This document shows, in pieces, positions 8,556 through 48,292 of a stretch of DNA of 64,000 nucleotides (within the stretch, counting starts at the first letter, position 1; each line of letters starts with the position of its first letter). A program made the translations under genes and the position numbers. Location of the stretch: positions 40,461,273 to 40,525,272 of the forward strand of contig NC_057718.1 of the NCBI RefSeq assembly GCF_004010195.1. Direction: 5' to 3'. The DNA comes from Chiloscyllium plagiosum. Taxonomy: Eukaryota. The notes below the pieces were generated by a model, which saw only the letters and a list, made by a program, of their open reading frames with translations, searched no databases and had not been told where the DNA came from.

Positions 8556-9056
8556 AATTCACTCATGAGACATGGATACCATTCCCGATGAAGGGCTTTT
8601 GCCCGAAACGTCGATTTTCCTGCTCCTCGGATGCTGCCTGACCTGCTGTGCTTTTCCAGCACCATTCTAATCTAAACTCTGGTTTCCAGCAACTGCAGTC
8701 CTCACTTTTGCCTAGACATGGGTGCCGCTGACTGGCCAGCATTTATTGCCCATCCCTAGCTGCTCTTGGCTTGCTAGGCCATCTCAGACAGTTAAGAGTT
8801 AACCACATTGCTGTGGGTCTGGAGTCACATGTAGGCCAGACCAGGAAAGGATGGCAGATTTCCTTCCCTAAAGGGCACTCATTATCTCAATGGGTTTTTC
8901 TGACAATTGACAATGGTTTCAACATCATCATCAATAGATTCTTAATTCCAATTTTTTTAAAAATTGAACTTAAATTCCAGCACCAAGATCTCCACAACAT
9001 TAGCTGAGTTTCTGGATTAATAGTTTAGTGGTAATGCCACTAGTCCATCACCTCCC
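8556..9056 (-). mobile_element. Deu-domain SINE (SacSINE1-like), tail interrupted by a ribozyme mini-element
   Basis: ccacattgctgtgggtctggagtcacatgtaggccagaccagg...ccttccctaaag core; homologous to 51316-51661. Confidence 0.7.
8581..8713 (+). mobile_element. Ribozyme-only PLE mini-insertion
   Basis: cCGATGA-aGGGC-tttt-GCCC-GAAACGTC (8585-8612) plus full tail; TSD agacatgg(a/g)t(a/g)cc at 8568-8580 and 8714-8726. Confidence 0.85.
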
Positions 9057-9439
9057 CTTAATCTTAGAGTCATGATGTTGCATATGACTCTATGGGACTA
9101 GCACATAGGATTTTTATCTTGTGGAGTGGAATGGCCTAAAGTCAGGAAAATGTTGAAAGTCCAGATTAAAAGACATTTGTTTAGTTCCACCGAACCATCC
9201 ATCCTCTTCAGAAGATTATAGATTTTGTCAGAAGGAAAAGCAACGATTACTATAACTATTTGCAAATGACATTGTTCTCTTTTGAAGCTCATTAAACACA
9301 TTTTAATTGAACAGGCATTGAAAAAACTATTACCCTCTTCAGGAACTAACAAATCCATCAAAAGTATTAAAGTCTCATTCTCCATGTTTGAATAAACAAG
9401 CTCTACATTACAGATTCCATTAGTACTTTAGAAAATAGC

Positions 9440-10875
9440 GGTGACGTAGCTCTGCTTGACCTCCTGGAATCATGTGGCTTTTGCCCACAGAGGGGCACAA
9501 CAGACATGATTTTCACGTGGCAACAGCTGCAGGAGAAATGTAGAGAAAAGAACCTTCCCTTGTACGTGACCTAACAAAGGCCTTTGACACCGTCAATCGG
9601 GAAGCGTTATGGTGTGTCCTTTTCAGCTTTGGTTGCACTATGATGTTTGACACTATGCTTCCCTTGCTCCAAGACAACAACATGGAAGTTGTGATAGTGA
9701 CAAGTAGCTCCACCACCAACCCATTCCCCATTCAGACTGGTGTCAAGCAGGGCTGTATCATCACCCCGACATTGTTCTTGATCGACCTCGCTGCAATGTT
9801 TCACCTCACGGCCAACAAGCTCCGTGCCAGAGTGGAGCTAACTTACAGAAATAGTGGCAAATTTTTCAACCTCTGCTGCCTCCAATCCAAAACCAAAGCC
9901 ACCCCAACCCGTATCATCGAGCTGCAGTACGCAGATGATGCTTTCTCATGTGCAATCTCTGAGTATGTATTCCAGACCATTGTCCGCATCTTTACAAAGG
10001 TATATGACAGCATGGATCTCACATCCTCAAGATGAAGGTGCTCCACCAACCTGTCTGGCATGGTGGAGTGAACACCGATCATCAAGAGACGTGGGGAAGC
10101 CTTAAAGAACATTGACCAGTTCCAATACCTCGGGAATGTCCTGATGGCCAACGCAGCTATTGACGAAAAGATCCAGCACTGCCTCCATTGAGTTAGTGCA
10201 ATCTTTGGCTGCCTGAGGAAAAGGGTGTTCAAAGCCAACATCATCAGATCCAACACCAAGCTCATGGTTTAGAGCCGTGGGGGTTCCCGCCCTCCTACAT
10301 AGTTCTGAGACATGGACAGTCTACAGCAGACCCCTCAAGGCACTGGAGTAGTACCGCCAATGCTGCCTACGCAAGATCCCCATAATCCGCGAGGAAGAAA
10401 GATGCACCAACACCAACGTCCTCAACCAGGCCAACATCCCCAGCATTGAGGCACTGATCGCCCTTGATCGGCTATAATAGGCTAGATATAACCCACATAA
10501 CCAACACGAGACTCTCCAAGCAGGTGTCCTATTCTCACTTTGAAACGGCTAGTGAGCTCCAGGCTAGTGAGCTCAAGGTCTCACTGGAACAATGCGGCAT
10601 TTCCACAGACACCTGGGAATCACTGGCCCAAGACTGCCCAATATGGAGGAGGAGAAAGCATCGAGCACCTCGAGACTTGCCATCGGTAAAAAGTGGAATC
10701 CAGGTGAAAACTGCCACACCAAAAACCCCACCCACCCCTTCCTGCAACCACCTTCTACTCCAAATATAACAGAGCCTGTGAATGCCACATCGGTCTATAC
10801 AGCCACTTACAAACTCACCCTTAGTGTGGAAGAGAGTCATCCTTGTCTACGAGTGACTTCTAATGTTGATGAGAA
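9440..10875 (+). mobile_element. RTE-clade LINE, 5'-truncated, degraded RT
   Basis: GFCPQRGTTDMIF, DLTKAFDTVNREALW, TGVKQGCIITPTLF and ELQYADD RT motifs. Confidence 0.9.
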
Positions 10876-11329
10876 GATAGCCAAGCAATCAAACCCACAT
10901 TCCTGGGACACATGAATAGACAAATCCTACTGAACAGAATCCATTAAGACTTTTGAAAGTATTTAGAAGTTCAAACAAATGTCAACAATTTCAAACAGCC
11001 AAACAGATGGCTGGTCTGTTTAAAATGTTGTTGACAGTGGATCATAAATAATTTAGTAGTCACATACCTTTTCAATCACTGCCCTGTCATCACTTTGGTA
11101 AACACAGGTGTAACTAGGCATTTCATGCTGAACTGTAAACCCCACTTCAACTGATCATATATAGTCTCACACTTGGCTGAATAAGAACTGGTATGATTCT
11201 TCAAACATTAACTCTGTTTTTCTCTTCACAGATTCTGCCAGACCTGTTGATTTTCTCCAGCATTCTCTGTGTTTGATCCATTTCTGGAACCAGTGGAATC
11301 TTCAAGGATTATATTAACAAGCACCCATG

Positions 11330-11765
11330 GAGTGTATTAGCTATAAGGAGAGGTTGGACAAATTGGATTGCTTTTGCTAGAGCATCGGTGGCTGTGGGAT
11401 GACCTTTTAGAAGTATACAAAATTATGAGAGGCATAGATAGAGCAGAGAGTTGGAGTCTTTTTCCTCAGGTGGAAATGTCAAATATTAGGAGACATATGT
11501 TTAATGTGAGGGGGGGGGGAGAGCAGTTTAAAAGGGAGGCAAGTTGTTTACTCAGACAGTGGTAGAGGTGACTGGAACAAACAGCCAGTGAAGGGGTAGA
11601 AAAAATACTATAGCAACATTTAATGGATATTTAGACAGACACATGAACAGGTAAGGAATGTAGAGGTACAAACCATGTGCAGGCAGATGGAATTAGTTCA
11701 GATTAGCATAATGATTGGCACAGACATGGTGGGCTGAAGGGCCTGTTCCTCTACTGTACTGTTTG
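11330..11765 (+). mobile_element. CR1 LINE 3' end
   Basis: DLLEVYKIMRGIDR segment and CR1 tail gggctgaagggcctgttcct. Confidence 0.85.
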
Positions 11766-12724
11766 ATCCATTATCATACCATACTTAGATAGCATAGCAT
11801 CTTACTGTCTTTGATGCCTTGAATAAGAGTGAGAATGAATTCAATGAAACATTCACATTACAAGGTTTAGATTCTTTGAGATTCTACAGAGAATTCATTA
11901 ATTACATTTGGTTATTAAATGTGTCGTACAAGAGTACAGCAATCAATATAATGGCCAAGTGTTTCTCAGTTAATACAGGAAATGATTGTTAACTGGATTC
12001 CTTTCTATGTAAATAGCCAAGAGAAGAAAGCAAACATGACTACTGTCATCTCTTCCATCAAGGCCATGGGATTGTTTGGAAAAGATTTATTTGAGTTTAA
12101 AGGTAAAATCTCCCAAGACTGTTATTCAAGATGGTTTCAAATAAACTGTCAGTACAGAACCAGAGCAGAGGTGGTGACTGATCCACTCAAGAAAATCTAC
12201 ACAACTGGCATTCCAGACATTGTGCGAGCAAACAAGAGTCACGGTTTGGAAATAAGCAGTTTAAGAGGTTTGCATGTGAATATGATTTTATTCATGTGAC
12301 CAATTCATCCCACCATCCTCATGTGAGTGGAGATACTGAGTGAAAAGTGTAAACAATAAAAGTATTAGTGAAGAGCAATGTCTTAATGTTGTGTTGTTAA
12401 GCTATAGATCGTAGTCAATACAAATGGCATATCACTGTCAGCGTTATACAACTTCCAACTGTTCTCAATAGTTGCAAACTAACATCACTGCAAATGTCCA
12501 TAACACAGTGAAACAATGGGAGAAGAAGCAGTGGGATAACGAAACTCAAAACTTTAATAAAAATCAGAGTACAGAAGTTATTAGAGTTGCAGCTGAGCCA
12601 GACATTACTGGAATGAAATTGACCGACAGAAACAAATTTATAGCAAGATCATTTAGGGTTTAAACAGATAATAGGACTTTAAGAAGAATTCATATAGAAT
12701 TGATTAAGAAACTAATGCAAATAA

Positions 12725-14030
12725 ACAGATGCTACAGGAAGGATAAACGGGGAGGCAAGAGAGGAGGGGGAGTGGTGTTTTTGATTGGGGAATACATCAC
12801 AGTAGCACTGAGGGATTGTCCAGTGAAGCGATATGGGCGAAACTGAAAAATAAGAAGGGGATGACCATCTTGATGAGATTGTGCTGTAGGCCCTCCAATA
12901 GTCACCAGGAAATTGAGGAGCAACTATGTAGGAGATTACAGACAGCTGTAAGAATAATGGGGTTGTCATAATTGGAGATTTTAACTTTCCAAACATAGAC
13001 TGGGACTGTCAAAGTGTTAAGGGCTTGCATGAGGAGGAATTTGTAAGTGTTTTTAGGAAAACTTTCTCAATCAATAAGTAGATGGCCCTACTCGAGAAGG
13101 GGCAAAACTCAACCTGCTTTTGGGAAATAATGCAGAGCAAGTGACTGAGGTAATAGTAGGGGAGCACTTTAGGACCAGTGACCGTAATCCTAATAGTTTT
13201 AAAATAGTTAGGGAAAAGGATAGGTCTGTTCCACAAGTTAAAGTTCTAAATTGAGGCAGGGCAACATTGATGGTACTTGACAGGAACTTACAAAAATTGA
13301 TTGAGGGAAGCTATTCGGAGGTAAAGGGAGGTTTGGAAGTGAGGAGGCTTTTAGAACATAGAACAGTGCAACACAGATACAGGCCATTCGGCCCACCATG
13401 TTTGTGCCAACCATGCTGCCATTCTAAACTAATCCCATCTGCTGGCACATTGTCCATATCCCTCTACTCTCTGCCTCTTCATGTGTCTGCCTAAATGCCT
13501 CTTAAACTTCGCTACTATATTTGGTTCGACCACCTCTCCTGGGAAGGCATTCCAGGCACCCATGATCCTCTGTAAAAAGACTTGCCTCGCATATCTCCTT
13601 TACATTTTTCCTCTCTCTCCTTAAACATTTTCCCCCTGTTATTTGACATTTCCACCCTGAGAAATAGACTCTGAATATCCATCCTGTCCATGTCTCTCAT
13701 AATTTTATATACTTCTATCAGGTCACCCCTTGGTCACTAATAAATTAGTGAAAACAATCCAAGTTTGTCTAACCTCTCCTGACAATGAATACACTCCAAT
13801 CTATTTAAAAATGAGATAACATGAGTTCAGGGCCAGCATGTTCCCGTTAGCATGAAGGCAAGGCTGGCAGGAGTAGCGAACACTGGATGACTAGAGATAT
13901 TGTACATACTGGAGGCCTGTGACCAGCAGTGTGCCACAAGGATTGGTGCTGGATCTGTCATTTATGTAAATGGTTTGGTGGGAATATAGGAGGAATGGTC
14001 AGTAAGTTTACAGATGACAACAAAATTTGT
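12725..14030 (+). mobile_element. Fragmented CR1 LINE (APE endonuclease and RT pieces)
   Basis: RGGGVVFLI, VIIGDFNFPNIDW and VSKFTDDNKI; interrupted at 13353-13800. Confidence 0.75.
13353..13800 (-). mobile_element. CR1 LINE 3' end
   Basis: Reversed tail agaacatagaacag...aggccattcggccc; YKIMRDMDRMD segment. Confidence 0.85.
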
Positions 14031-15004
14031 GCATTTCTGCAGTGCATCTTGGAGATAGTGTACTCTGATGTGACTGAGCATTGGTGGTGGGGAGAGTGGA
14101 TACTTGTGGATGTGGTGTCAATTAAGTAGGCTGCTTTGTCCTGGATGCTGTCAAGCTTCTTGATTGTTGTTGGAGCTGCACCCATCCAGACCTGTGAGGG
14201 ATATTCAATCACACTCCTGGCTTTGCCTGGTAAATGGTGGGCAAACTCTGGGGAGTCAGGACGTGAGTTATCTGCTGCAAGACTCCGAGCCGCTGACCTG
14301 CTAATCAAACCTCTGTGTTTATGTAGCAAGTTTAGTTGAGTTTCTAGTCAATGGTAACTCCCAGGATGTTGATAATGGAGGAATTTGTGGATGGTAAAGC
14401 AATTGAATGTCAAGGAGTGCTAGTTGGATTGTCTCTTATTGGAGATAGTCATTGCTTGGGGCTTGTATGGCATGAATGTTGCCTGTCACTCGTCAGCCCA
14501 AGCCTGGAGTTACAAATGGTGCAGAACACTGTGCAGTCATTAGTGAACATCTCCACTTCTGACCTTATCATTGATGAAGCAGCTGGAGATGGTTGAGCCT
14601 AGGACACTAACCTGAGGAATTCCTGCAGAAATGTTTTGGAACTGAGATGACTAACCTCCAACAACCACAATCATCTTCCTTTGTGCCAGGTATGACTCCA
14701 ACCAGCAGAGACAGTGCCCCCGATATCCATTGATTCCAGTTTTACTGGAACTCCTTGATGCCACACTTGGTCAAGGGCTATCACTGTCACCTCACCACTG
14801 GAATTCAGCTCTTTTGTCCATGTTTGAACCATGGCTGTAAAGAGGTCAGGAGCTGAGTGGTCTTAGTGAAACCCAAACTGGACATCACTGAGCAGGTTAT
14901 TGCTGAGCAGGTGCTGCTTAATAGAACTGTGGATGACACCTTCCATCACTTTACTGATGATCAATAGAAGACTGATGGAGTGGTAATTGACTGGATTGGA
15001 TTTG
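14030..15004 (-). mobile_element. CR1/L2-group LINE of a second family, degraded RT
   Basis: RSVIEYPSQVWMGAAPTTIKKLDSIQDKAAYLI; homologous to 30035-30635. Confidence 0.7.
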
Positions 15005-15192
15005 TTCTGCTTTTTGTGATCAATGAGGAAGATGTTAAAGGGTCAATTGTTTGAGATTGCCTTGGTAATCTTTAGCTGAAAATGTGTTGCTGGAAAAGCG
15101 CAGCAGGTCAGGCAGCATCCACTTCTGCTTTTTGTGATCAATGAGGAAGATGTTAAAGGGTCAATTGTTTGAGATTGCCTTGGTAATCTTTA
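15005..15192. repeat. Perfect 70-bp direct duplication enclosing a 48-nt PLE terminal-repeat fragment
   Basis: 15005-15074 is identical to 15123-15192; reverse complement of 15075-15122 matches ~786-832. Confidence 0.9.
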
Positions 15193-17067
15193 TCCTGGAA
15201 TGATATCTGGATAGTAGCTGATGTTACTATTGCCCCTTTCCATAAAGAACACAGTGCTCCGCATTCTCAGTCCCTTTGTAATAACAATTGCTGTTGTGCT
15301 CACTATACTGAACGATGTTAGAGGCAGGCATTGGAAATCTTCCCAATTTAGAGCTTCAGTGACAGCAGTAAGCTCTCCCAGATCAGATATAATACAGCCT
15401 GATGCAGAATAAAGCTTTCCTTACTTTGTCCAGCAACATGTTTCTACAAGCTTAGTATCTTTTTTTCAGTATTCTCTTGGGTACAATGTTGATTGTCAAT
15501 TCCATAACAATTTCTGCATCTTATATTTCAGGGTGTGCTTATGTAGTCTAATATCCAACTATAAAAATAGTGTAACCTAGTGCTGTAACAATAGTATCCC
15601 TCTGTGATCTAAACTGGAAATGTATGCCTTTTGCATGTGTACTTTCTCAATCTCTTTCAAGGCAGATCAAGGAAACACTGAATAGGATATGATGTGATAT
15701 AAGTCATTAAGTTGCTTTATTTTTCTGCATGTGAACACATGTATTAAATTCACTTATTTTATTCAGACCAACTTAGTCTTTCTGTAATAATGCAAAATAT
15801 TTCCCAAATCAATGGCTCTTAGTTAGCTTTCAATATAATTACCTTACTGACAACTTCCACTTTCTACTCTTATAACCTTTTTTGAGTTTGAAAGCCTGTG
15901 CAATTTTGTTTTATTTTTGCAGATATCATGCAACATGTGGATCAACATCCTATTATTTCCTATTTTACAAGCAGTTGAAGATTGATTTCTGACCAGTCTT
16001 CCTCATTGGATAACAGCTTGAAGAGCTGTTAATCGATCCTGCGACTGTTACCAATAGTCTGAAACTGCCTTCCCGCAAAACTCTAAGGATGGGCCATTCT
16101 ATAAACTTGAGGTGTCAGCATGCATGAGGAGTACATGAGTAAGGTAGTGGAACTTCCTCTTGCTGAGCCCACATGGGAGGAACTCAGCGGAATTATGGGA
16201 ACTTTATCCTGTGGAGTTTATTGAGGGTAATCGAAGAGAGGTGGCGTGTGTGATGGATTTGGATCCACTGCCTCAGCAACAGATTGGGGTCTGTCAAAAG
16301 GGCTGCTGAGTGCCAGGATGTGTTGTTAAAAGACTCATCTTGGTTCGTTGCTACTTTGGCTCCTTGTTAGGGATTAGGTCATCTCACACTTCTCCATCCC
16401 TCCTGCCCAAGCCCCTTCCCTGACATGCAAGGCCCAGGCTCTCCTATCCAACCTACAGTCCCTTAGAGGCCCATGTATCCCATGCTCTGCCCACACCCAC
16501 AGCCTCTTGTAGACCTCATGTCAACACTTGTCAGTCAATGCATGCCAAACCATCCACACCACCTTCTTCTTAGATCTTACATGTCAACTCACCCAGTACC
16601 TATTGTGCTCATTCCCTTTCCAATCTCCTTCTTGTTCCTAGCTTTCTTGCAGCTGCTGCCTCCCACTGTAAAAGTAGGGGGAAGCTTCCTTCTACCCCTC
16701 AGCCTGCTAACAGCTACCTCCTGTCACCGCCCTACGCTTGCAGCCTTCTACTCCCGCCCCCTCCCCCAACCTTTTCAGCTTGTGGAACTAGCAATAACAA
16801 GCATGGGAGAGGAATAGCCCATGAGTGGAGGAGTAGCTGCTCACTGAGTTTGTAATCGCTACTTATGGATTCTACCACAGGGATGACATTTTTTAAACTT
16901 GCCCAGATATTTTGTGGACTTTTCCGGGAGAATTTGCCCATAGCTCGACTGCAGCCAGTTTTAAGAAAAGAAAAGGCTGGCCATATAAGTGACGTACTGT
17001 CAGTTCCCTTTGACAGATCTGTTAGATAGCTCCCTTTGAGAGTTCCAATGAGCTTGACAAATCCAAA

Positions 17068-17765
17068 GAGTCTCAGCAACAAACCTACACAAGCAGACAA
17101 GACGCATCCAGAAACCCTAGCCACTCTCCCCTACATCAAAGACATTTCGGAAATGACTGCCAGACTACTCAGACCCCTTGGCATCATGGTAGCCCAAAAT
17201 CCCACCAATACACTAAAACAGTAGTTAATGAACTTGAAAGACCCTATACAGACAACAAGCAAAACTAATGTCATCTACAAAATACCTTGCAAGAACTGTA
17301 ACAAACACTACATTGGACAAACAGGCAGAAAACTAGCCACCAAGATACATGAATATCAACTAGCCATAAAACGACATGACCCTCTGTCACTAGTATCCTT
17401 ACATACAGGTAAGGAAGGACACCACTTCAACTGGGACAACACATCCATTCTAGGACAAGCCAAACAGAGACATGCACGAGAATTCCTAGAAGCATGGCAT
17501 TTCAACTGGAACTCTATTAACAAACACATTGACTTGGACCCCATTTACCACCCCCTGAGAAAAAGAACTGGAAATGACATCACCATAGGAAATGATGTCA
17601 CCACAGGAAATGACACCACCAACCCAAGGAAATGCAAACATATAAATAGAAAGCAGGAAACACCAGCAGTGCTTTGTCTGGAGGCCGACTCAAGATGTTA
17701 CCTCGTATGGTGACGAAATGTTTGAAAAATGAACCTTCCAGCTAAGTGAGCATACCTACATCCAG
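17068..17765 (+). mobile_element. PLE of a second clade (Poseidon-type), 3' part with GIY-YIG endonuclease
   Basis: LPYIKDISEMTARLL and NVIYKIPCKNCNKHYIGQTGRKL...REFLEAW; no Cys-rich linker; degenerate hammerhead at 17689-17722. Confidence 0.9.
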
Positions 17766-17919
17766 TTTATGAACATTTACAAACATTCATGTCTACTTTT
17801 AACAATGCCAAAGATCTCTTCCCAAAGGTCCCTGGACCATATACAAAAGAGTATCTTGTTTCTCCAAAAGGACAGTCTGCCTCTTTAAATAACTCTGGTA
17901 AGTTTAGATATTCTCTTAC

Positions 17920-18112
17920 CAGGTTTTATAGGATGTGACTCTTGTTTTGAACATACCACAAGGAGAAATCACATCCAACTGAAGGAAGCTGTTGTGCAAA
18001 CTGCAACCTGCTCTTGCTGCCTCATTGCCAAAAATGGCAGGACAAGGTGTGGGGTGGACTTTGAGATTTAGATATCTGGCATTATTTTCACGACGATAGA
18101 GAAGGTCTCCAT
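17920..18112 (-). CDS. Candidate internal coding exon (193 nt, phase 1 to 2) of an unidentified gene
   Basis: Acceptor gattgttttatgcAG, donor CTG|GTAAGA, one open frame GDLLYRRENNARYLNLKVHPTPCPAIFGNEAARAGCSLHNSFLQLDVISPCGMFKTRVTSYKT; not repeat-like. Confidence 0.45.
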
Positions 18113-21208: not shown

Positions 21209-21566
21209 CAGGCGTTTCCTTGTAGCTCCCATCAAATTTTGAATGATATTACAGTGAATAAATAGGCACAACTCTGAGGAAAGTGTTTTGAACAGTTGGT
21301 AACCTGTTGGGTAAATGCTGACACAAGATGAATTCTTCCTTTTTGGTGGTTGATCAAATGTTCAAGTTGTAAACTTTGAATATTATTCATTTACAGAGTC
21401 CCATTTCAGCCACAAAGTTTCTTAAAGTCTCAATAACAACAGCCATGTGTGGAAAGCCTTGTTCTACAGTAGCAAAACATAGGGAAGTGCCACTATTGGA
21501 AAATAAAATATCTTTAAAAGCAGATTAAATACCTAATTATATTAACAAGTTATGAAATTAGAAACA

Positions 21567-21773
21567 AAAACAAGAATTGCTGGAAAAGCTCAGCAGGTCT
21601 GGCAGCATCTGTGGAGAGAAATCAGAGTTAATATTCCAGGTCTGGTGACCCTTCCTCAGAACTGGACCCAAAACGTTAAATCTGATTTCTTGTCACGAAT
21701 GCTGCCAGACCTACTGAGTTTAGCAACTCTGTTTTTATGTCTGATCTACAGCATCCGAAATTCCTCTGGTTTG
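21567..21773. mobile_element. Inverted (head-to-head) PLE terminal-repeat insertion, third subfamily
   Basis: Minus arm with CTGAGGA-aGGGTC-acca-GACCT, plus arm with tail; TSD tatgaaat(t/c)agaaaca at 21551-21566 and 21774-21789. Confidence 0.8.
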
Positions 21774-23140: not shown

Positions 23141-23152
23141 TAAGGTGCACCA

Positions 23153-23344: not shown

Positions 23345-23439
23345 GTGATGAAGCGCTCTTGCCTGAAACGTCGATTTTCTTGCTCCTCGGATGCTGCCTG
23401 ACCTGCTGTGCTTTTCTAGCACCACTCTAATCTTGACTA
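23345..23439 (+). mobile_element. Ribozyme-only PLE mini-insertion, tail-less, degenerate
   Basis: gTGATGA-agcgc-tctt-gcct-GAAACGTC; degenerate flanking repeat tgcagtgatga / tacagtaataa. Confidence 0.75.
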
Positions 23440-23683
23440 CAGTAATAACACCTTCAGTATTTGAGTTAACACATGGTGAATTTAAACTGACACATAAGCA
23501 GAGTTAGAAGAACTTATCAATATCCTCACTTATTATCTCTTTGCTCAATTAAAAATACATTTATTGTTGCATTCCTTTCCCAGATACTACAGTATTTAAA
23601 TTGACACAAGACAACAGATATAAGCTAGCAAAAAAGGTTTTTTTTCAAAATATCTGACAGACATTTCTACAGAAATAATCACC

Positions 23684-23771
23684 TGAAGAAGGGCATGTGC
23701 CCGAAATGTCGAATCTTCTGTTCCCTAGATGCTGCCTGACCTGCTGTGCTGTTCCAGCAATAAAGTTTCAG
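23684..23771 (+). mobile_element. Ribozyme-only PLE mini-insertion, tail-less
   Basis: CTGAAGA-aGGGC-atgt-GCCC-GAAAtGTC; TSD ctacagaaa(t/c)aatcacc at 23667-23683 and 23772-23788. Confidence 0.85.
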
Positions 23772-24099
23772 CTACAGAAACAATCACCCTAAACACATAT
23801 TCCACGGACTGGCATGGTCACAGCTACTGCATGCTTATTGCCCAGCCGCAAAGTTGGAACATTTTAACCAGGCAGGCACTACCTGACTTACTGCATCTCA
23901 AATTTCAATCACAGTTTTAAATTTAAAATTGACAATGTTGATTTAAAAAGCATCCATTTCATTAGTCCTAAAGTAGTAGCTGCTGATCTAATGCAGCCTC
24001 AAGCCAGAGATTCCACATTCATTTGCTAGGAATTCATTAACCAGTGATATCAAGTTTTTCTGGTGAATAAGCAGTTGAGGACTCCATTGTTGATAGGTT

Positions 24100-27280: not shown

Positions 27281-27289
27281 AGTAATTTT

Positions 27290-30635: not shown

Positions 30636-31928
30636 AATTACAGGAATTGAGTTACTGTCTGCTTCTACAACTGTACTCTGGGTGCATACGACATTTTAAG
30701 AGGTTAAATTTGAAATATCTCCATTTTGAAAGTTTTTGTGTGTGTAGATTTTTATAATTTGCTGTAATGGATATTTTTTAAAAATGTCATAATTTGGATT
30801 TTTTAAAGCTACTTAGTCCACACAGTTTCTCACTTTAAACTTCTACATTCCTATGAGTGAACATAAGAAGACTTAAAAAAATCACCCAAAAACATATGGT
30901 TTGCAGACATGGCATTGCAGTTTGTACAGAAATAATCCAGTTCACGACAGAAGGTAGTACAAAGTAGAGCTAAAAATATAAAACATGATTAGAAGATGAA
31001 GGGTATATCATTAAATAAGGCAAGTTGGCAAAACAATCTTGTTGCAATAGCTGACAAAATATTGGAAGTGCAGTCACAGGAAGGAACTTTTACCAAAGTC
31101 AAGTTTACATTTTGAAAGTGTAAGGTAAATTTTGAAAGCCCCAAAGCAATAGTACATGAAGGTAGTGCATGGTGATTTCAACAGACAGTGAATTCCTAGC
31201 ACCATCTCATCTGGACTGTCTGTCAGTGGTATCAGACTTTTGCTAAATTTACCCGGAACGAACTAGACAAACGTAATTCCAATCCAAGGGAATGTTACTG
31301 GCATACGTTTGTAATCCTTATTATGCGGAGATGCTAGCTTAGAAAGTATGCTCTGCTCCAGTTTCTGTGATTAAGATGCATATTTAAAGCATCAGTGTTA
31401 AATAATTATTTACTGTATTAACAGAGACATTTCACCCCATTTACTGCATAAATGCCTCTATTACAATTACACCCAGTAAAAACATATTGTGTCTGGTTTT
31501 GCATTGAATTCTAATGAGTGACACCAACCGAACCCTTGATTTGCACTTCTGTGTAGACATTCGATGGTAGCTGCCAGCCAACCATAATGCACCTCGACAG
31601 GGCCTCTGGGAATAAGGCAAATGCCTGTATATCCCATAAACAATCAGATTGAAGAATTATTCCTGAGGTACGTGGGGCTGAATTTTCACTATGGTACCTG
31701 GTTTTAGGGTCAGAAACCTATCTCTGGTGGGAAAATTTAGATTTTCAGACTGAAAGCCCATTATTGATCAGGAGATGGGTTTTCTTTGTTTTTTTTTTCT
31801 TTTATGGAATATGGACATCTCTGGCAAGGCCACTCTATTGTGTAGCAGAGGCACCTCTCTGACAGGGTCATCTCCCTCCTCTCTTATCTCCAGCTCCTAA
31901 CTCCGTGAGCCGCGTCCTTACAGGGCTT

Positions 31929-32149
31929 GGAGAAAGTCAAGTCTGCAGATGCTGGAAGTCAGAGTCGAGAGTGTGGTGCTGGAAAAGCACAGCAGGTCAG
32001 GCAGCATCCGAGGAGCAGGAGAATCAACGTTTCGGGCCGGAGCTCTTCATCAGGAATGAAGGGCTGATAAAGGGCTCCGGCCCGAAACTTTGATTCTCCT
32101 GCTCCTCGGATGCTGCCTGACCTGCTGTGCTTTTCCAGCAACACTCAAC
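31929..32149. mobile_element. Inverted (head-to-head) PLE terminal-repeat insertion with two hammerheads
   Basis: Minus hammerhead 32026-32053, plus hammerhead 32064-32091; TSD tcctt(a/c)cagggctt at 31915-31928 and 32150-32163. Confidence 0.9.
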
Positions 32150-32755
32150 TCCTTCCAGGGCTTCACTACTCAAAAAATCCCGTACTTCCCTGGAGGGCCA
32201 TGTAATGCAGAGGGCAGTAGGCCACCACTGTGACTGAGATCCTTGCAGAGGATATTGGAGTCCAACACCTAACTAGTCCTGGCAATGGAATCACGTCTTC
32301 AGAAAGCTGATGACCAGCTTGGTTGTTGCTGTATTCAGCAGCAGGAATTAGTGATATTGTCTCTGTTTGGAGCTCTACAGGCAGGCCACTTATTCACAGG
32401 CTATCTGTTCAAATGAAGATTTGAGGCATCTGGAACTGTCAGAGGGTGAAGGATTCATGGCAGCTGCAAGGAAAGTGAGCACACACAGAGGACACGCTTC
32501 ATGTGGTCACAAGGTAGTTGCATATTGAAGGAATGGAATCCCTTACTGTTGAAGAATCACATTGGCTAGTCACTGTCTGCCTTGATAGCCATATGGGTGC
32601 ACCAAATGATGCCCTTCTTCAGATAGAATCCAGCGAAGGAAGCTAAACCCAATAAACCCTGGCTCTGCAGTACCACGTCTGTCCTTCAATGAATATGCTG
32701 TCCAGCAGTGGGTATGAGATGCAGTACAAGGAGCAAAGAACATAGAAAATTACAG

Positions 32756-33627
32756 ATTCTGGATTAGTGGTGCTGGAAGAGCACAGCAGTTCAGGCAGCA
32801 TCCGAGGACAGGCAGCATCCGAGGACAGGCAAAATCGACGTTTCGGGCAAAAGGCCTTCATCAGGAATAAAGGCAGAGAGCCTGAAGCGTGGAGAGATAA
32901 GCTAGAGGAGGGGTTGCTGAACAAAGAGACCTTGGAATGCAGGTTCATAGTTCCATGAAAGTAGAGTTGCAGGTAGATAGGATAGTGAAGGCAGTGCTTC
33001 GTATGCTTTCCTTAATTGGTCAAACCATTGATTATAGGAGTTGAGAGGTCATGTTGCAGCTGTACAGGACATTGGTTAGACCGCTTTTGGAATATTGTGC
33101 GCAATTCTGGTCTCCTTCCTATCGGAAGGATGTTGTGAAACTTGAAAGGGTTCAGAAAAGATTTACAAGGATGTTGCCAGGGATGGAGAATTTGAGCTTT
33201 AGGGAGATGCTGAATAGGCTGGGGCTGTTTTTCCTTGAGCATCAGAGGCGGAGGGGTGACCTTATAGAGGTTTATAAAATCATGAGAGGCATGGATAGGA
33301 TAAATAGACAAAGTCTTTTCCCTGGTGTGGGGGAGTCCAGAACTAGAGCGCATAGGTTTAGGGTGAGACAGGAAAGATTTTAAAGGGAATTAAGGGGCAA
33401 CTTTTTCCACATAGAGGGTGGTGCGTGTGTGGAATGAGCTGGCAGAGGAAGTGGTAGAGGCTGGAGGCTCTCTGCCTTTATTCCTGATGAAGGGCTTTTG
33501 CCTGAAACGTCGATTTTGCCTGTCCTCGGATTTTGCCTGTCCTCGGATGCTGCCTGAACTGCTGTGCTCTTCCAGCACCACTAATCCAGAATCTGGTTTC
33601 CAGCATCTGCAGTCATTGTTTTTACCC
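32756..33627. mobile_element. Composite insertion: inverted PLE ribozyme arms enclosing a CR1 RT fragment
   Basis: Minus arm 32756-32913 (hammerhead 32837-32864), CR1 32914-33464, plus arm 33465-33627 (hammerhead 33484-33511); perfect TSD catagaaaattacag at 32741-32755 and 33628-33642. Confidence 0.9.
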
Positions 33628-34899
33628 CATAGAAAATTACAGCACAGGAGTAGGCCTTTCTGCCCTCCAAGCCTGCACCAATCTAGATCCTCTATCTAAA
33701 CCTATCACGTCTTTCTCCTCTGGAAGTATTAGCTTTCTTTTCCCTTAGGAAGCCTGAGTGGAGAATGTTGCATCTTGTTATTCTGAAACCCTTTAAAATA
33801 AGACCATTCATCTCAGTGGATCTTAATCACCATCTCCAGGAGGGGTGGTTCTAATTGAGAGTTAAAAACTGTTAAGACAAAGTATTTCTCTGCAGTCAGT
33901 TCAGGTCTCTGGGAAGCTCAGGCATAGTGACAAGGAGGCTGGATGCTGCTGTCACAGCCTTGCATAGGCCTGTCTCACTTTTCAAGTATTCAATTGGAAA
34001 TTGGGAGGTCGGGCAAGGGTGGGTGGGCTTACATCAGCAATGTGTGATTCCAGGAATTTCTGTGACTCCTCCTTCACGGACTTACAAAACTAGACAATTC
34101 TGGCCCTCTATGCCTAAGGCACAGTAGGCAAGATGTAACAGCACAAGCGAGCCCTGAACTTGGCAAGCCTAAAAGGCTCCATTGGAAATTTCAGAACAGT
34201 ATAATAGGGATACACTGTTGAGGTTTGTTGTTTAAAGTTCATTGTCAGGGAAACACAGCACAAATGACTTACGATTCTCAGTATCATCATTGTTTGAAAA
34301 GTGGCAACTTGCCCTGCACTGCAGCATGCCAGCTGCCCATCCTAATTAGTGGTTAGAAAGCAATAATAAGTGAACTGTGTTTTAATTTAATGAATAGACA
34401 GTAATTTGCATCTGATACCATTAGCTATACTTTCCCAGTAATCAATGTTGGTGCCATTTAATCAGTCCTGTGGGTCAAAGTAGTCAGAAAAGGATATCTG
34501 CCAACATGGAAATACATTAATCCAAAGCCTTTAGAGTCATAACTTCATTAGCATTTTTGGCAAAGAAATTGCCAGAGCTATTCATTACTGAATTCAGCAG
34601 AGTTCATAAAATACCCTGTGGTATCTTTTTGTTTGCTTCCTCGACTCCAAAAATAAGATATATTTATACAATTGTTCACATTTATAAGGGAAGGAATAAC
34701 AGCAATTAAAACAGAACTGTTTCTCATTGCTTGGCTTTCTTTACACTGGAGGGCTTCAGTGCAAGTTCCTCTACTTTTTCTGTAGCCTTATGCCCTTCTT
34801 TCTCTTGCTGAGTGCCTCCAAATTCAAGATGGAGGGCAGAATCTTTGAGGCAGAATCTGAATGAGGTGGGCTATGTTGAGAATTGTAGCAGAGTCACAT

Positions 34900-38900: not shown

Positions 38901-39000
38901 GTAGGTAATTTATTCAATGAGTTTGATAAGAGATAGGCCTCAGAGTGAGAAACCTTCTAAAAACACTCATGCAACGAACACTTATCGAAAAAAATTGAAA
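36000..39000. mobile_element. Possible very old Harbinger-type DNA transposon debris
   Basis: Only weak resemblance of minus-strand 37780-38010 to the PIF/Harbinger DDE region; no intact motif or TIR pair confirmed. Confidence 0.25.
37000..37019. other. Assembly gap (20 N)
   Basis: N run. Confidence 1.
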
Positions 39001-39189
39001 AATTCAGGTCAGTATTTGTTGCTTCAGTCAAATTAGTCAATCTATTGTCCTATCACCATTGGCTAGGAATGATCAGATACCATTCTCTTGCACACCACCG
39101 TCCCCCTTTCTTCTGCATGTTGCTGGGAATCACTGCAGCCCCTTGACAGAGTCTTCCTGCTCCCCACACTGGTTGGGAAATCAGCAGAG

Positions 39190-39570
39190 CAGAAATCAAA
39201 CATATGCCCATCTGGTTGTATTTAGATTTCCCCCACATCCTTGCCACTTCCTACCTTTGTAACATTCTCCATCACCATAACCTTCCCTGAATTTTGAATT
39301 CCTTTGACTCTGTAAAGGGTCTCTGCATCCACCCTTTCTTAACAGCCCATCTTCAATACTTATGATCATGCTGTTTAATTCCACCCCTAAATCTGTCTCT
39401 CATTCTCTCCTCTTTAAGACTTACCCATAAAGCCTAGTTTTTTTGCTCAGCTCACCAGTCCTCATAACTCCTCCATTGGCTCAGCATCCGTAAATTTCCC
39501 TTAGGTTTGTGAAGTACCTTGGAACATTTCTTTCAATATTAGAAGTGCTATATTAAAGTCAGTTGCTGTG
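39190..39570 (+). mobile_element. L2 LINE 3' end
   Basis: tgtgaagtaccttggaacattt...agtgctatattaaagtcagttgctgtg L2-type terminus. Confidence 0.6.
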
Positions 39571-42500: not shown

Positions 42501-43045
42501 AGGGCAGAGAAGCAAGTGGTGAGCTGCTGCCACCAGCTAACTGCTTTGACTTTCATGTCAGGAATTGGCACGATCTAGTTTCTCAGCTGAGGAGAGAATT
42601 AGAAGTTGTATAGAAATGAGATGAGATTAGCTAATAATGAGATGCAAATGTATGTAACTAAGAATATTGATGCTCATTAACAAGATTCAGAAATTGCTGA
42701 TTAAACCCCAAGAGGAAAATTGGAAATCCTTGACATTGAGAGTCTAATTTTTCCATTTTTGCTGTATTTTGCCAACTTTTTCAGCATTGTTCATCCTGCT
42801 CAAGGAAGGCAGAACATTTCACACCAGTGACAGATAAAATATTCTGGCACTAGTTTTTAACAAAAATGCATTTTCCATTAATCCAGATGGCAAGTATGTG
42901 ATTTTACTTTATGTATAACATCCAGTAAGAATTTTTTTCTTTGAAAAAGACTCAATAGCCTTGATATTTGTGAAGAGGAGTGGGGTTGCAGAAGGAACTG
43001 TGAGGAAAGTTGGATCTGAGATCAGGTGGGGGGAGGAGGAAGCAG

Positions 43046-43410
43046 AGGAGACAGGACGCCTACTTGCAGAGTGCTTCAAAGAACATCTCCTGGACACCCG
43101 CACCAACCAACCCCACCACTCCATGGCTGAACACTTCAAATCCCCCTCCCACATGCAGGTCCTGGGCCTCCTCCATCACCAAACCCTAACCACTCGATTC
43201 CTGGAGGAACAACGCTCATCTTCCGCCTTGGGACCCTTCAACCACACAGGATCAATGTGGATTTCACCAGTTTCCTCATTTCCCCTCCCCTCACCTTATC
43301 CCAGATCCAACCTTCCAACTCAGCACTGCCATCATGACCTGTCCTACCTGTCCATCTTCCTTCCCGCCTATCCGCTCTACCCTCCTCTCCAACCTATCCC
43401 TGCCACCCCG
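43046..43410 (+). mobile_element. PLE endonuclease C-terminus/UTR fragment without ribozyme
   Basis: ETGRLLAECFKEHLLDTRTNQPHH. Confidence 0.85.
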
Positions 43411-43844
43411 GGATCGTTTGTTGCCAGACGGCCCAGATATTCTGAGAGTGACCTGCCCAGAGGCAGGTTTCACATCTTGGGTTGGAACTGCCACAGAGCT
43501 GAGGGCAGCAGGTGGGTAGAGGTGAAAGGTTGGGTCCCATTTGGAGTGTCCTAAGAGGAGGTTTGTATGTATGTAGCTGTATGTATGTAGCTCCTCCTCT
43601 GGTTGGATACTAATTGGAATCACTCTGTCTACTTGTGAGGAAGAGGCACCTGGGACTGAGAACAAGGTGCCTGGTCACCCTATTGCTTTGGTATTAGGAC
43701 CAATGGCTAGAGCACTGAAGTACAGATCTAACATTTATCCAACAGAGTCCGAGAGTGCTCTGGCTGTCCATTGGCAGCCACCAACGTCTCCGTGGAGGAA
43801 GGCAGATACTCGCATGCTGGAGACAGCAGGGTCCCAGTGGGACC

Positions 43845-44095
43845 CTCTTTGGAGGGTTGGTGCAGACTCAATGGGCTATTTATCATGGCTAATCCACTTA
43901 GCCCACAAATCCCTGAACACTGTAGGACTATTTAGCCAAACTACCTAACCCGCACATCTTTTGGCTGTGGGAGGAAACCTGGACGAAAAACACGTAGATA
44001 TGGGGAGAATGTGCAAACTTCACACGGATAGTCACCCCATGTTGAAATCGAACCCAGATTCCTGGTGCTGTGAGGCAACAGTGCTAACCAGTGCT
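43845..44095 (-). mobile_element. HE1-like V-SINE
   Basis: Reversed V-domain gggagaatgtgcaaact and head. Confidence 0.8.
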
Positions 44096-44598
44096 AAATA
44101 CATACCAAAACTATGGGTGGGAACTATCAGATCCTGCAGGGGAAAGAGGAAAAGTGGGATTGAGTCTAGCAGGGGCCAGAGGGAAGGTTAGGTTCCTGGA
44201 GGGGTGGGGCATGGGTGGAGATGAGCGAGGGATTCGGTCTGTCAGTGGGGAAGGAAGGTGTCAGCTCTGGAGCAGGAAGGTGGGGGTTGGGTCTGAAGGC
44301 TTGGGAGGGAGTTTCAGATCTTGGGAGGGTTTGGACACTGTTTGTTACACTCCCTGGTGTGGTGGCAGTCTTGAATTCCCAGGACCCTGCAGAGGACACT
44401 TCTTCATTGCACGATGGGATCTTCTTTGTGCTCAGATGGCCTCTCCAGTTATGGCTGACAGTCTTAGCTCCCTTCTGCTGACAACATCCCGCCCCCCCAC
44501 CCCATTGATACCAGTTGCTGTGGGCCCACTTTGCCTCAAGGCTGCACTCATCCAGTGACGTCATAACCCTCTCTTCACTGTTCATCCTTTCATAGGGA

Positions 44599-45294
44599 TT
44601 GGTCAGTCACACAGTAACAGGGCCACATTATCGAGGGGACTGTCAGTCAGTCACACAGTGACTGGGCCACACCATCAAGGGGTCAGTCAGTCAGTCACAC
44701 AGTGACTGGGCCACATTATCGAGGAGACGGTCAGTCAGTCACACAGTGACAGGGCCACATTATCGACGGGTCAGTTAATCAGTCACACAGTGACAGGGCC
44801 ACACCATCAAGGGGTCAGTCAGTCAGTCATAGAATTACAGGGTCACACCATCAAAGGGTTAGTCAGTCAGTCACATAGTCACAGGGCCACACTATCAAGG
44901 GGTCAGTCAGTCAGTCAGTCACAGAGTGACTGGGCCACACCATCAAGGGGTCAGTCAGTCAGTCACAGAATGACTGGGCCAGTCAGTCAGTCAGTCACAG
45001 AATGACTGGGCCACACCATCAAGGGGTCAGTCAATCAGTCAGTCACACAGTCACAGGGCCACGCTATCAAGGGGGTCAGTCAGTCAGTCACACAGTCACA
45101 TGGCCACATTATCGATGGGTCAGTCAGTCAGTCACACAGTGACAGGGCCACACTATTGATGGATCAGTCAGTCAATCACAGTGACAGGGCCACACTATTG
45201 ATGGGTCAGTCAGTCAGTCAGTCAGTCAGTCACACAGTGACAGGGCCACACTCTTGAGGGGTTGGTCAGTCAATCACACAGTGACAGGACCACA
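44599..45294. repeat. Minisatellite, ~40-50 bp unit with variable (CAGT)n
   Basis: About 16 copies of (cagt)n-cacacagtgacagggccacaccatcaaggggt. Confidence 0.95.
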
Positions 45295-45684
45295 GGACAC
45301 CAGTCGCTGATATTTTTGAACGTTATGTCCCCGTACCTGACCCTGTCGGGATCCGAAAATTTATTTTGGTGTGATGGAATTGAATTGACAACAATGGACT
45401 TGTTAATCTTTACAGAAATTTAATCTAATCAGAGTTTTGTTTGGAGAAATGCAATTGTACCCTTGTTTTTACAGTTTGGCTTGCTGTAGTCATGTGACAT
45501 CTACCTTGGCTGTAAATACCAATGAGTGCAACCTGTGGCATCACCTGGCTGAGCTACCACAGAACTTCGCTCTGCCTATGGGATTTCCAGCCGAGTCTTG
45601 ATTTAACAGGATTCCCATTCCAATGTGGTTCCACTGATTCAGGTAAAGCAAGGCTTATATTTATTTTGGTACTTCTCCCTGCCA

Positions 45685-48292
45685 TGTCTTCACCATTCCC
45701 CCAGACCTCCCCCTCATTGAGGACGAATGTTTGGTCCTCAGTAAAGGCCTCACCTTTATTCCTCTACACTCTCAGATTAATGAGTTTGACACACACTGCG
45801 ACCTTGAACGTTTCTTCCACCGCCTCTGCCTACTTTTTTAACCAAGGCACCCGCCCACCCACTGAGGACCCCTTCTCCTGTTTCCAACACACCCCATCCA
45901 CCTGGACACCCTGTGCTGGCCTGCTACCTACCTTTGACCTCTTCATTTCAAACTGCCTCTGTGACATCGACCACCTCAACCTGTCCACCCACTCCAACCT
46001 CTCACCCTCACACCCTCCACTCCCTCTGCTCCAACTCCAACCTCACCATCAAACTAGTAGACAAAGGGAGTGCAGTGGTAGTTTGGCACACTGCCATCTA
46101 CACCACTGAATCAGGTGCCAACTTGAGGACATCTCCTCTTTTTGCCCCCTCCACCATGACCTCGCCCCCCACCCCCATCACCAAACCATCATCTCCCAGA
46201 CCATACACAACCTCATCACCTCATGAGATCGCCCACCCTGAAGAAGGGCCTGTGCCCGAAACGTCCAATCTCCTGTTCCCTGGATGCTGCCTGACCTGCT
46301 GTGCTGTTCCAGCAATAAAGTTTCAACTTTGATCTCCAGCATCTGCAGACCTCACTTTCACCTCATGAGATCGCCCACCCACAGCTTCCAACCTCATAGT
46401 TCGGGAACCCTTCACCGCCCTGTTCTACCTCCTACCCAAGATCCACAAGCATGACCACCATGGTCGACCCATTGTCTCAGCCTTCTCCTGCCCCACAGAA
46501 TTCATCTCCACATACCTCGATACTGTCCTATCCCCTGGTCCAGGAACTTCCCACATACATTTGGGACACCACCCACGCCCTCCACCTTCTCCAAGACTTC
46601 CGTTCCCCCGGCCCCCAATGCCTCATCTTCACTATGGACATCCAGTCCCTCTATACCTCTATCTGCCATGACCAGAGCCTCCAAGCCCTCTGTTTCTTCC
46701 TCTCCCGACATCCCCACTAGTACCCTTCCACTGACGCTCTTATTCGTTTGGCTGAAATGGCTCTCACCCTCAATGATTTCTCCTTCCAATCCTCCTACTT
46801 CCTCCAGATGAAAGGGGTAGTCATGGGCCCCAGCCATGCCTGTCTCTTTGTCGGCTATGTAGAGGAGTCCATCTCCTGGAGTTACACCGGCACCACTCCC
46901 CACCTCTCCCTCCGCTACATTGATGACTGCATCGGTGCCACCTCGTGCTCCCACGAGGTGGTCAAACAGTTAATCAATTTCACAAACACATTCCACCCCA
47001 ACCTCAAATTCACCTGGACCATCTCTGACACCTCCCTCCCCTTCCTAGACCTCTCCATCTCCATCCATGAGGACCGACTCAACACTGACATTTTCTGCAA
47101 ACCCACCGACTCCCACAGCTACCTGGATTAGACCTCATCCCACCCTACCTCCTGCAAAAATGCTATCTCGAATTCCAATTCTTCTGCCTCCGCCGCATCT
47201 GCTCCCAGGAGGACCAGTTCCACCATAGAACACACCAGATGGCCTCCTTCTTTAAAGACCAGAATTTCCCCTCCCACATGGTTGAAGATGCCCTCTAATG
47301 AATCTCATCCACGTCCAGCACCTCTGCCCTTGAAATCCACCCCTCCAATCGCAACAAGGGCAGAACCCCCCCCACTCCTCATCTTCCACCCCACCAACCT
47401 CCGCATAAATCACATCATCCACTGACATTTCTACAAATGGACCCCACCACCAGGGATATATTTCCCTCTCCACCCTATCCGCTTTCTGCAAAGACCGTTC
47501 CCTCCGCGATTACCTGGCCCACGCTCCCTAACAAGTCACCCTCCCCCCCCCGACACCTTCCCCTGCCACCACAGGAATTCCACCCACACCTTCCCCCCTC
47601 ACCTCTATCCAAGGCCCCAAGGGAGCCTTCCACATCCATCAAGGTTTCACCTGCACTTCCACACATGTCATTTATTGTATCTGTTGCTCCCGATGCTGTC
47701 TCCTCTACATTAGGGAAACTGGACGCCTTCTCGCAGAGCGCTTTAGAGAACATCTTTTTTTCACCAGCACCAACCAACCCAATTGCCCCGTGGCTGAACA
47801 TTTCAACTCTCCCTCCCACTGTGCCGAGAACATGAAGGTCCTGGGCCTCCTCCATCACCACTCCCTCACCACCTAATGCCTGGAGGCAGAACACCTTATC
47901 TTCCACCTTAGGACCATTCAACCCCAATGCATCAACGTGGACTTCATCAGTTTCCCCATTTTCCCTTCCCCACCTTACCCCAGTTCCAATCTTCCAGCTC
48001 AGCACTGTCTTCATGACCTGTCCCAACTGTCTATCTTCCTTCCCACCTATCTGCTCCATCCTCCTCTCTGACCTATCACCTTCAACCCCACCTCCATCCA
48101 CCTATTGCACACCCCAACCCCACACCCCTCCCATTTATCTCCCATTCCAGAGACTCCCAGCCTCATTATTGATGAAGGGCTCCGGCCCGAAACGTCGATT
48201 GTCCTCCTCCTTGGATGCTGCCTGAACTGCTGTGTTTTTCCAGCACCACACTTTCGACTCTGATCTCCAGTATCTGCAGTCCTCACTTTCTC
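45685..48292 (+). mobile_element. Long, decayed Neptune-type PLE (RT + GIY-YIG + ribozyme terminal repeat)
   Basis: [72 protein letters not shown]; hammerhead 48169-48196; multiple stops. Confidence 0.92.
46239..46357 (+). mobile_element. Ribozyme-only mini-insertion nested in the PLE ORF
   Basis: CTGAAGA-aGGGC-ctgt-GCCC-GAAACGTC plus tail; perfect 23-bp TSD at 46216-46238 and 46358-46380. Confidence 0.92.

Follow-up and report, generated by a model that had tools for sequence, protein, structure and literature searches.

A preferred 5' boundary at the hammerhead edge in short copies of a Penelope-like element of the shark Chiloscyllium plagiosum

Why should short insertions in a shark genome begin, again and again, at the edge of a hammerhead ribozyme motif? 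This question is raised by a stretch of 64,000 nucleotides of Chiloscyllium plagiosum (NCBI RefSeq assembly GCF_004010195.1, contig NC_057718.1, positions 40,461,273 to 40,525,272, forward strand; the whole stretch is called the window below), in which a preliminary description had singled out four 'ribozyme-only' inserts and ascribed them either to drop-off of reverse transcriptase (RT) at the folded ribozyme or to a short RNA mobilised on its own. We identify these mini-insertions as sense-strand copies of the 3' module of an endonuclease-bearing (EN+) Penelope-like element (PLE), and we find them to belong to a genome-wide population of copies whose 5' ends pile up at the 5' edge of the hammerhead. 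Positions within copies are counted from the C of CUGANGA, which is 0 (C0). The four inserts are as follows:

8581..8713, + strand: mini-insertion of 133 nt, starting at -4 (ATTCC), core altered to CCGATGA, long 3' end (...CCTCACTTTTGCC); flanks 8568-8580 and 8714-8726 duplicated, 11/13 matching
23345..23439, + strand: mini-insertion of 95 nt, starting at +1 (TGATGAAG), stem II decayed, short 3' end; flanks share only an exact 7-nt repeat, a clean duplication being absent
23684..23771, + strand: mini-insertion of 88 nt, starting at 0/+1, short 3' end (+88); flanks 23667-23683 and 23772-23788 duplicated, 16/17 matching
46239..46357, + strand: mini-insertion of 119 nt, family A, starting at 0/+1, long 3' end, rare C at +28; flanks 46216-46238 and 46358-46380 duplicated, 23/23 matching

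Two of these inserts have a short and two a long 3' end. As the preliminary description had stated, three of them lie between clear target-site duplications (13, 17 and 23 bp) and one between degenerate flanks, and all start within 0-4 nt of CUGANGA, 8581 at -4 and the other three at 0/+1. Target microhomology is likewise seen at the starts, the final C of the duplication doubling as C0 in the three 0/+1 copies, and GUC at +25..+27 places the predicted cleavage 27-28 nt downstream of the copy starts, again as claimed. None of the four, however, is a complete active ribozyme alone: in three of them helix I is missing its 5' strand (AUUC, -4..-1), and the 8581 copy has a changed core (CCGAUGA).

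The origin of the module is apparent from longer copies, in which the hammerhead lies ~200 nt after the open reading frame (ORF) and ~125 nt before the element 3' end (...CCTCACTTTCTCC). The module consists of a minimal dimer-type hammerhead and a tail of ~90-125 nt, downstream of RT and GIY-YIG. An RVT_1 match stands upstream of the hammerhead on the same strand at two loci (L004 and L031; E = 2.2e-8), and a GIY-YIG domain (PF01541) lies between RT and hammerhead at L130:3336-3857, with 24.5 bits against a cut-off of 22.6 (18.3 bits, under this cut-off, in L129); in L031 (7390-7660) and L128 (3216-3861), copies of family A to which the 46239 insert belongs, as in most of the PLE loci examined, the part expected to code for the endonuclease reads N, which is not so in L129 and L130. 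A 654-aa RT protein has 73 matches in the genome, and the closest named protein is an uncharacterised shark protein. RT motifs such as KPTDSHSYLDYTSSHP, together with a CNRRRCNTC linker, are what we take to be of PLE type. Further hallmarks of PLEs are present as well: partial tandems (the pseudo-long terminal repeat, pLTR), an inverted 5'-short neighbour copy, a tail of 30-40 nt at one end and variable target duplications, which range from 5 to ~68 bp across copies.

The family A hammerhead reads AUUC CUGAAGA A GGGC CUGU GCCC GAAA CG UC/GAAU, and the general module can be written AUUC-CUGANGA-A-GGGC-loop-GCCC-GAAA-CG-UC/GAAU, with a 4-bp stem II, a 4-bp helix I and a GUC site. A palindrome, ACGU, stands where helix III would be. 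The features of a minimal hammerhead ribozyme (min-HHR) are all found, namely the CUGANGA and GAAA boxes, which are invariant in 8 copies, a stem II with G10.1-C11.1, a palindromic 15.2-16.2 without loop 3 and a GUH site. Free-energy folding recovers helix I and stem II, and the fold of the RNA -4..+135 is no more stable than that of shuffles (z = +0.53). Rfam covariance models gave no hit at the gathering score in the window and no hammerhead at E up to 10 in 31800-33800, a miss that is expected because those models need helix III. Cleavage by the hammerhead in these shark families is predicted, and a minor class of copies starting at +26..+28, described below, is an indirect sign of it.

To locate the 5' ends, we counted 45-mer patterns with up to 2 mismatches over the genome of 3.56 Gb (controls 0). 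The family A 45-mer +75..+119 occurs at 12,711 places (reversed control 0), and the first 93 of these along contig C1, an order independent of the 5' end, formed our sample. With the 4 places of one tandem array set aside, 89 copies were aligned to a long natural copy; one of them, L110, has N upstream and was dropped, which left 88 copies with a mapped 5' end:

-21 or further upstream: 14/88
-20..-12: 0/88
-11..+4: 47/88
+5..+12: 7/88
+13..+22: 4/88
+23..+33: 4/88
+34..+74: 12/88

Rather than being smooth, the distribution of breakpoints thus shows a strong peak at the hammerhead 5' edge: 47 of the 86 ends of -130..+74 lie within 16 of the 205 nt (binomial p = 1.8e-29). Counts of family A tiles over the whole genome give the same picture:

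-124..-80: 3,547
-49..-5: 5,405
-22..+22: 5,920
+1..+45: 16,716

From the last two counts it follows that ~10,800 copies, about two thirds of those holding the core, end inside ~23 nt. Ends are lost at ~470 per nt at the boundary, as compared with 19-25 per nt upstream. In family C, 14,332 places (-22..+22) stand against 40,858 (+45..+89) with up to 3 mismatches, that is 35 in 100 and equal to family A, a drop that is coarse and spans two tiles, the detailed mapping of ends being that of family A. In a small sample of bystander copies with the core, of mixed families, 13/26 had no common upstream sequence and 13/26 shared at least 20 nt; on visual inspection, the latter comprise 8 inverted partner arms and 5 genuinely long copies. 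Single copies carry their own duplications and start at -4, at 0/+1 and sometimes at -7..-11, several with microhomology or a few target-copied bases at the 5' junction, and short target-copied fillers occur at the 5' junctions of L042 and L058. Boundaries drawn by BLAST within palindromic junctions are uncertain by a few nt. Elsewhere, 5' ends form smaller clusters: one at -76..-73, two on partner arms at -118 and -149, and one at +52/53. The starts of the last cluster, within the conserved GATGCTGCC/TGACC, amount to 4/88 in family A (L045, L049, L057 and L088), to which the dropped L110 adds one more.

Most copies do not stand alone. An adjacent inverted partner was found in 52/89 sampled copies, and the head-to-head arrangement is the commonest form. 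The partner's inner end lies at -11..+4 in 41/52 and its outer end at +88..+93 in 37/52, the sampled arm itself ending at +124. Pairs differ in their junction sequence, one type being seen repeatedly (9/89). Two independent cDNAs of a pair stop at one place. The window contains two such pairs, whose inner ends meet at 21659/21660 and at 32057-32064, close to where the preliminary description had put them:

21560..21659, - strand: head-to-head arm of the CTGAGGA family, inner end C0 = 21659, outer end approximate
21660..21760, + strand: partner arm, inner end within stem II (about +12), outer end approximate
31929..32057, - strand: head-to-head arm, inner end -4 (ATTCC), long 3' end (...GACTTTCTCC)
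32064..32152, + strand: partner arm, inner end C0 = 32064, short 3' end, outer end approximate

Composites of larger size exist as well. One of them, in which two long arms stand head to head and end internally at -76 and -149, is present at several loci (L038, L048 and L114); a second spacing type also recurs, and such composites may be copied as units.

Tandem units of 224 nt were found in L118, which is one insertion with its own duplication. Their spacer is the PLE 5' start (cf. L130) joined to the last ~20 nt before the hammerhead, and the unit is, judging from this composition, a retrozyme-like derivative with an internal deletion. Genome-wide, 729 tandem junctions were counted, compared with 12,711 long 3' ends. 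Within L118, positions 700-1800 (C1:26521699-26522799) show the duplication cttgaagaggcaat and, besides the 224-nt tandem units, a foreign stretch of 165 nt joined at -2. In both L040 and L118, copying ran as far as -3/-2 and from there carried on upon another RNA; this switch is template-end behaviour, as a reverse transcriptase does so on reaching the end of its template.

A minor class of copies begins close to the predicted cleavage site. Among BLAST-ranked hits to a window copy, L011, L012 and L019 start at +26..+28 with directly abutting duplications; in the unbiased sample the duplication of L098 likewise abuts +28, and L025 is a fold-back that turns at +28. Starts at +26..+29 make up 3/88 of the unbiased sample against ~1.5 expected from the local background, which is not significant. 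A C at +28 (G28C), the rare base of the 46239 copy, is found in 26 exact copies genome-wide, and 14 of these, drawn from the BLAST-ranked list, start at +26..+28 in 4/14 cases by script and 6/14 by eye, compared with 3/88 (p = 0.006).

Long copies, which continue upstream of the hammerhead, are also present in the window. The spans given here are not mapped copy ends:

682..870, + strand: long copy, C0 = 742, continuing upstream of the hammerhead, with a TTTTATCT box ~30 nt before ATT
32740..32924, - strand: long copy of family C, C0 = 32864, internal duplication of ~18 nt
48109..48300, + strand: long copy, core TTGATGA, C0 position 48169
56600..56791, - strand: long copy, C0 = 56731

A 19-mer common to the copies occurs 18 times in the window, where 0.02 occurrences would be expected by chance. 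In the long arms of family C at 32784-32864 (- strand) and 33484-33564 (+ strand), the internal duplication of ~18 nt (GATTTTGCCTGTCCTCG-like) lies between the cleavage site and this conserved 19-mer. A micro-insertion of ~50 nt at 15000-15195 (- strand, motif 15101-15119) holds only +42..+90 of the module and is flanked by a direct duplication of ~68 bp, which is unusually long. Of other features, an open frame at 9544-10035 (+ strand) with an RVT_1 match (E = 8.6e-11) is of a different kind, resembling a long interspersed nuclear element, and sits between the 8581 mini copy and a decayed motif of the hammerhead family at 11231. A weak U6-like Rfam match at 33113-33201 (+ strand; 22.1 bits against a gathering score of 44, E = 0.013) is probably due to chance.

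How could a fixed 5' boundary arise at the ribozyme edge? The reading we favour, with a probability of roughly one half, is that each mini-insertion is a full run-off cDNA made on a short template, which begins at the initiator-like CA/TTCC at the edge of helix I. It builds on what is directly observed, namely the fixed 5' boundary, the two 3' ends, the dimers, the template switches at the boundary and the PLE identity. The 3'-terminal region of the PLE (the pLTR when in tandem) would hold a core promoter with a T/A-rich TTATCT box ~30 nt upstream of CTCA/TTCC, and the RNA would start with, or close to, the A at -4, the base that opens helix I of the hammerhead. The PLE RT would begin internally, at ~+88-93 or ~+124-130, rather than at the RNA 3' end, and in each transcript started in a pLTR such a site would lie just 90-130 nt away from the 5' end. 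A cDNA primed at this site and extended to the end of the RNA would be a unit of ~95 or ~128 nt, and priming by both target strands would give a head-to-head dimer of ~215 nt with one short-tail and one long-tail arm. Units of the observed size would hence follow from three elements only: an RNA start just upstream of the hammerhead, an internal RT start and run-off.

We infer that the boundary is an RNA 5' end and that this end is a transcription start, with the following sequence features in favour. Across 8 long copies from several families, neither the ATT at -4..-2 nor the TCT in the TTATCT box varies. Initiators follow the consensus patterns YYANWYY and BBCABW, and within -330..+124 both are matched at two positions only, one of them -4; the minor clusters at -76..-73, -118 and -149/-150 coincide with initiator matches too, and G28C, whose carriers are enriched for starts at +26..+28, makes a new YYANWYY match at +29. 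Transcription starts within the pLTR in two studied PLEs (Schostak 2008; Craig 2021, each as far as its accessible text goes). In PAc, the Poseidon PLE of Anolis carolinensis, reverse transcription is initiated internally, at two nearby sites ~110-150 nt after the hammerhead core, copying in vitro proceeds to the template 5' end, and both target strands are cut and extended (Frangieh et al. 2024, PMC11167929).

Several observations weigh against this reading. The 487 polyA single-cell RNA reads, from a library type that is ill-suited to the purpose, showed no pile-up of starts or ends, and 97 in 100 of them extend into unrelated flanks. The starts of copies are scattered over -11..+1 (~12 nt) instead of falling on one base, and an extra G, the trace of a cap, was not seen at copy junctions. 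Initiator and TATA-like matches in pyrimidine-rich DNA are weak evidence, and the conservation of ATT may reflect helix I alone. The G28C carriers compared, 14 out of the 26 and drawn from a BLAST ranking, start mostly at +28 and not at the A at +29 that the new initiator match predicts. Regarding the elements themselves, the upstream pLTR of L130 starts at ~-95 and the multi-unit L118 at +15; no full-length copy examined has an upstream pLTR starting at -4, L126 having none. In D. virilis, moreover, the start is described as lying further upstream, with 46 nt followed by a 75-nt intron that ends at helix I (Schostak 2008; PMC4209133, in their accessible parts). A promoter and terminator scan with a bacterial model, which is irrelevant here, found nothing.

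Other explanations have to be weighed against run-off on short transcripts. The boundary could be a programmed stop, in which the PLE protein, sister to telomerase RT, stays anchored at the hammerhead so that a long RNA is not drawn past -4, similar to a template boundary. The boundary would then coincide with the first base of helix I and be common to several families, as is found; the ~1/3 of copies that pass it would be permitted by a leaky stop, and PAc indeed binds the first 172 nt after the hammerhead and aids cleavage (PMC11167929). In the same study, however, PAc product length in vitro tracked the template 5' end from -126 inward, and hammerhead mutants left the product size unchanged (PMC11167929). 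A block is also expected before the bound structure is copied and not afterwards, the fold is no stabler than shuffles, and the new cluster in G28C carriers is left unexplained, so that we hold a programmed stop to be unlikely. Simple drop-off of RT at the folded ribozyme, one of the two proposals of the preliminary description, is disfavoured on similar grounds: a stall is expected on the 3' side of the fold, and the fold does not surpass shuffles. Quite unlikely, in our opinion, is a resolution by the GIY-YIG nuclease, which prefers 5'-ATT-3' and might cut the new DNA at the ATT at -4..-2 and trim the part upstream. Within -330..+124, ATT occurs only at -74 and -4, both of which are clusters of 5' ends, it is invariant across families, PAc cuts both strands preferentially at this motif (PMC11167929), and nuclease-mediated resolution has been suggested as the origin of the tail (Craig 2021, accessible part). 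Yet the -74 cluster represents few independent events (L038, L048 and L114 being one composite), the starts at 0/+1 and -7..-11 are off the ATT, and AAT stands at +29 in both variants while starts there are common only in G28C carriers.

The second proposal of the preliminary description, a short RNA mobilised on its own, fares better in one respect, as the template does appear to be short. A separate non-autonomous element, akin to a short interspersed nuclear element (SINE) or a retrozyme, that has master copies of its own and is moved by the PLE, is nevertheless improbable. It would account for a length defined at both ends and for the very high copy number; the tandem 224-nt units, which combine the PLE 5' start with the 3' module (L118 and the 729 tandem junctions), do exist, and animal retrozymes derived from PLE pLTRs have been reported (Li 2026 preprint, accessible part). 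But zero substitutions split 47 mini from 14 long copies, in a sample that was picked by an exact 45-mer and has little variation, and a separate lineage is thus without support. The upstream TTATCT box is absent from the mini copies, and the tandem units are few beside the 12,711 long 3' ends. The 224-nt unit spacer is nearly absent from the polyA single-cell reads, where one back-joint was seen in 2 reads, in a library unsuited to small non-polyadenylated RNA. Neither of the classes to which such an element might belong fits: the four mini-insertions are single and have their own flanks, whereas non-LTR retrozymes (LTR, long terminal repeat) are tandem repeats of 150-450 bp, and the tRNA, 7SL or 5S head and internal promoter for RNA polymerase III (pol III) of a SINE were not found in the window, where ARAGORN detected no tRNA-like gene and Rfam no 7SL or 5S. 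Self-cleavage by the hammerhead, as the preliminary description had already argued, does not explain the main class of starts, whose peak lies 27-32 nt upstream of the cleavage site, and is a very improbable cause of the 5' ends in general. It can explain only the minor class at the predicted product end (L011, L012, L019 and L098, the fold-back L025, and 6/14 G28C copies by eye), where it competes with the new initiator match; the unbiased sample holds hardly more such starts than expected (3/88 at +26..+29 against ~1.5), and the enrichment is found in carriers of G28C, a change that removes helix I's first pair and would be expected to make cleavage weaker. Finally, random truncation with no preferred point is almost certainly wrong. 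Truncation at the 5' end is the rule in PLEs (Craig 2021, accessible part) and ends are found at many positions, but neither the 47/86 ends in 16/205 nt (p = 1.8e-29) nor the threefold genome-wide step in counts over 23 nt would be expected from it.

Three further candidates were rejected: a 3' splice site at -4, as AG is absent, an HDV-like (hepatitis delta virus-like) ribozyme cutting its own 5' edge, as an Rfam hit is absent, and transcription by pol III, as there is neither a T-run nor a tRNA-like head.

Taken together, the interpretation given in the preliminary description is partly supported; it had no place for the minor class at the cleavage site, for the prevalence of head-to-head dimers over every other form, or for a pair of fixed 3' ends. 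The elements, the ribozyme, truncation, inverted pairs, the tail and retrozyme-like derivatives are already published, whereas a preferred 5' breakpoint at the hammerhead edge, or mini copies of fixed length, were not found in the parts of the literature that were searched. To our knowledge, PLE copying is known from a single in vitro study, and a fixed boundary at the ribozyme edge, shared by roughly two of every three among ~16,700 family A copies, is a clue to it. The boundary would tie together three separate published facts, the start site in the pLTR, the internal initiation of RT and the run-off to the template end. It would account for the thousands of solitary minimal hammerheads and back-to-back pairs of animal genomes, and it offers a simple readout of PLE RNA template ends from genomes alone. 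For annotation, units with defined ends could be given catalogue entries of their own instead of being listed as random fragments. Going one step further, the module might be a self-contained retroposon unit, which as DNA would act as a downstream core promoter starting RNA at the first base of the ribozyme, and as RNA would bring its own RT entry sites. This extension is improbable; if it were true, mini copies landing behind a T/A-rich box could give rise to more copies, and tens of thousands of ribozyme-sized retroposons would be an inherent by-product of PLE activity.

It is instructive to compare these copies with known systems. At the telomerase template boundary, reverse transcription stops at a fixed point beside an RNA structure; the shark boundary would resemble this as a fixed stop of a telomerase-related RT beside an RNA structure, the anchoring element being hypothetical. 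In the twin priming of L1, head-to-head copies arise by priming from both target strands, which inverts part of one copy, whereas the shark pairs are two near-complete short copies that meet at their 5' ends. If our proposal holds, a likeness to Pr77/L1TcRz of trypanosome L1Tc would exist, where one stretch is both DNA promoter and RNA ribozyme and the RNA runs from the first base of the ribozyme; that ribozyme, as described in the accessible part of PMC3383444, is HDV-like, cuts its own 5' edge and lies at the element 5' end, while the shark hammerhead would cut 27 nt inside and lies at the element 3' end, and its promoter is putative. Animal non-LTR retrozymes, which are mobilised in trans, descend from PLE pLTRs and consist of short units that code for no protein and carry a type I hammerhead (Cervera and de la Pena 2020, PMC7229834; Li et al. 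2026; accessible parts of both). The 224-nt tandem units of L118 fit this description. The mini-insertions differ from it in being single or head-to-head instead of tandem and shorter than one unit each, and most of them cannot yield self-cleaved circles because the 5' strand of helix I is absent.

The closest relatives are other PLEs. With PAc, the shark elements share two internal RT starts, a tail of 30-40 nt, extension of both strands and a hammerhead near the start sites (PMC11167929). The PAc ORF, in contrast, starts inside CUGAUGA, whereas the shark hammerhead lies ~200 nt after the ORF and the ATG within its CUGAUGA opens just 17 codons; mini copies of fixed length are not described for PAc (PMC11167929). 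The inverted arrangement of PLEs and the 30-40 nt tail at one end are known (Craig 2021, accessible part). Metazoan genomes contain thousands of dispersed single min-HHR motifs of PLEs, as well as close pairs on opposite strands, located in pLTRs (PMC4209133, by Cervera and de la Pena 2014, here and below in its accessible part). The shark module agrees with these in its CUGANGA and GAAA boxes, the 4-bp stem II, the palindromic ACGU for helix III and the short helix I. The single motifs are regarded there as 'probably truncated PLEs', an account that, in the part consulted, does not give breakpoints; in the shark, by contrast, 5' ends accumulate where helix I begins, at its first base, and two fixed 3' ends are found among the copies.

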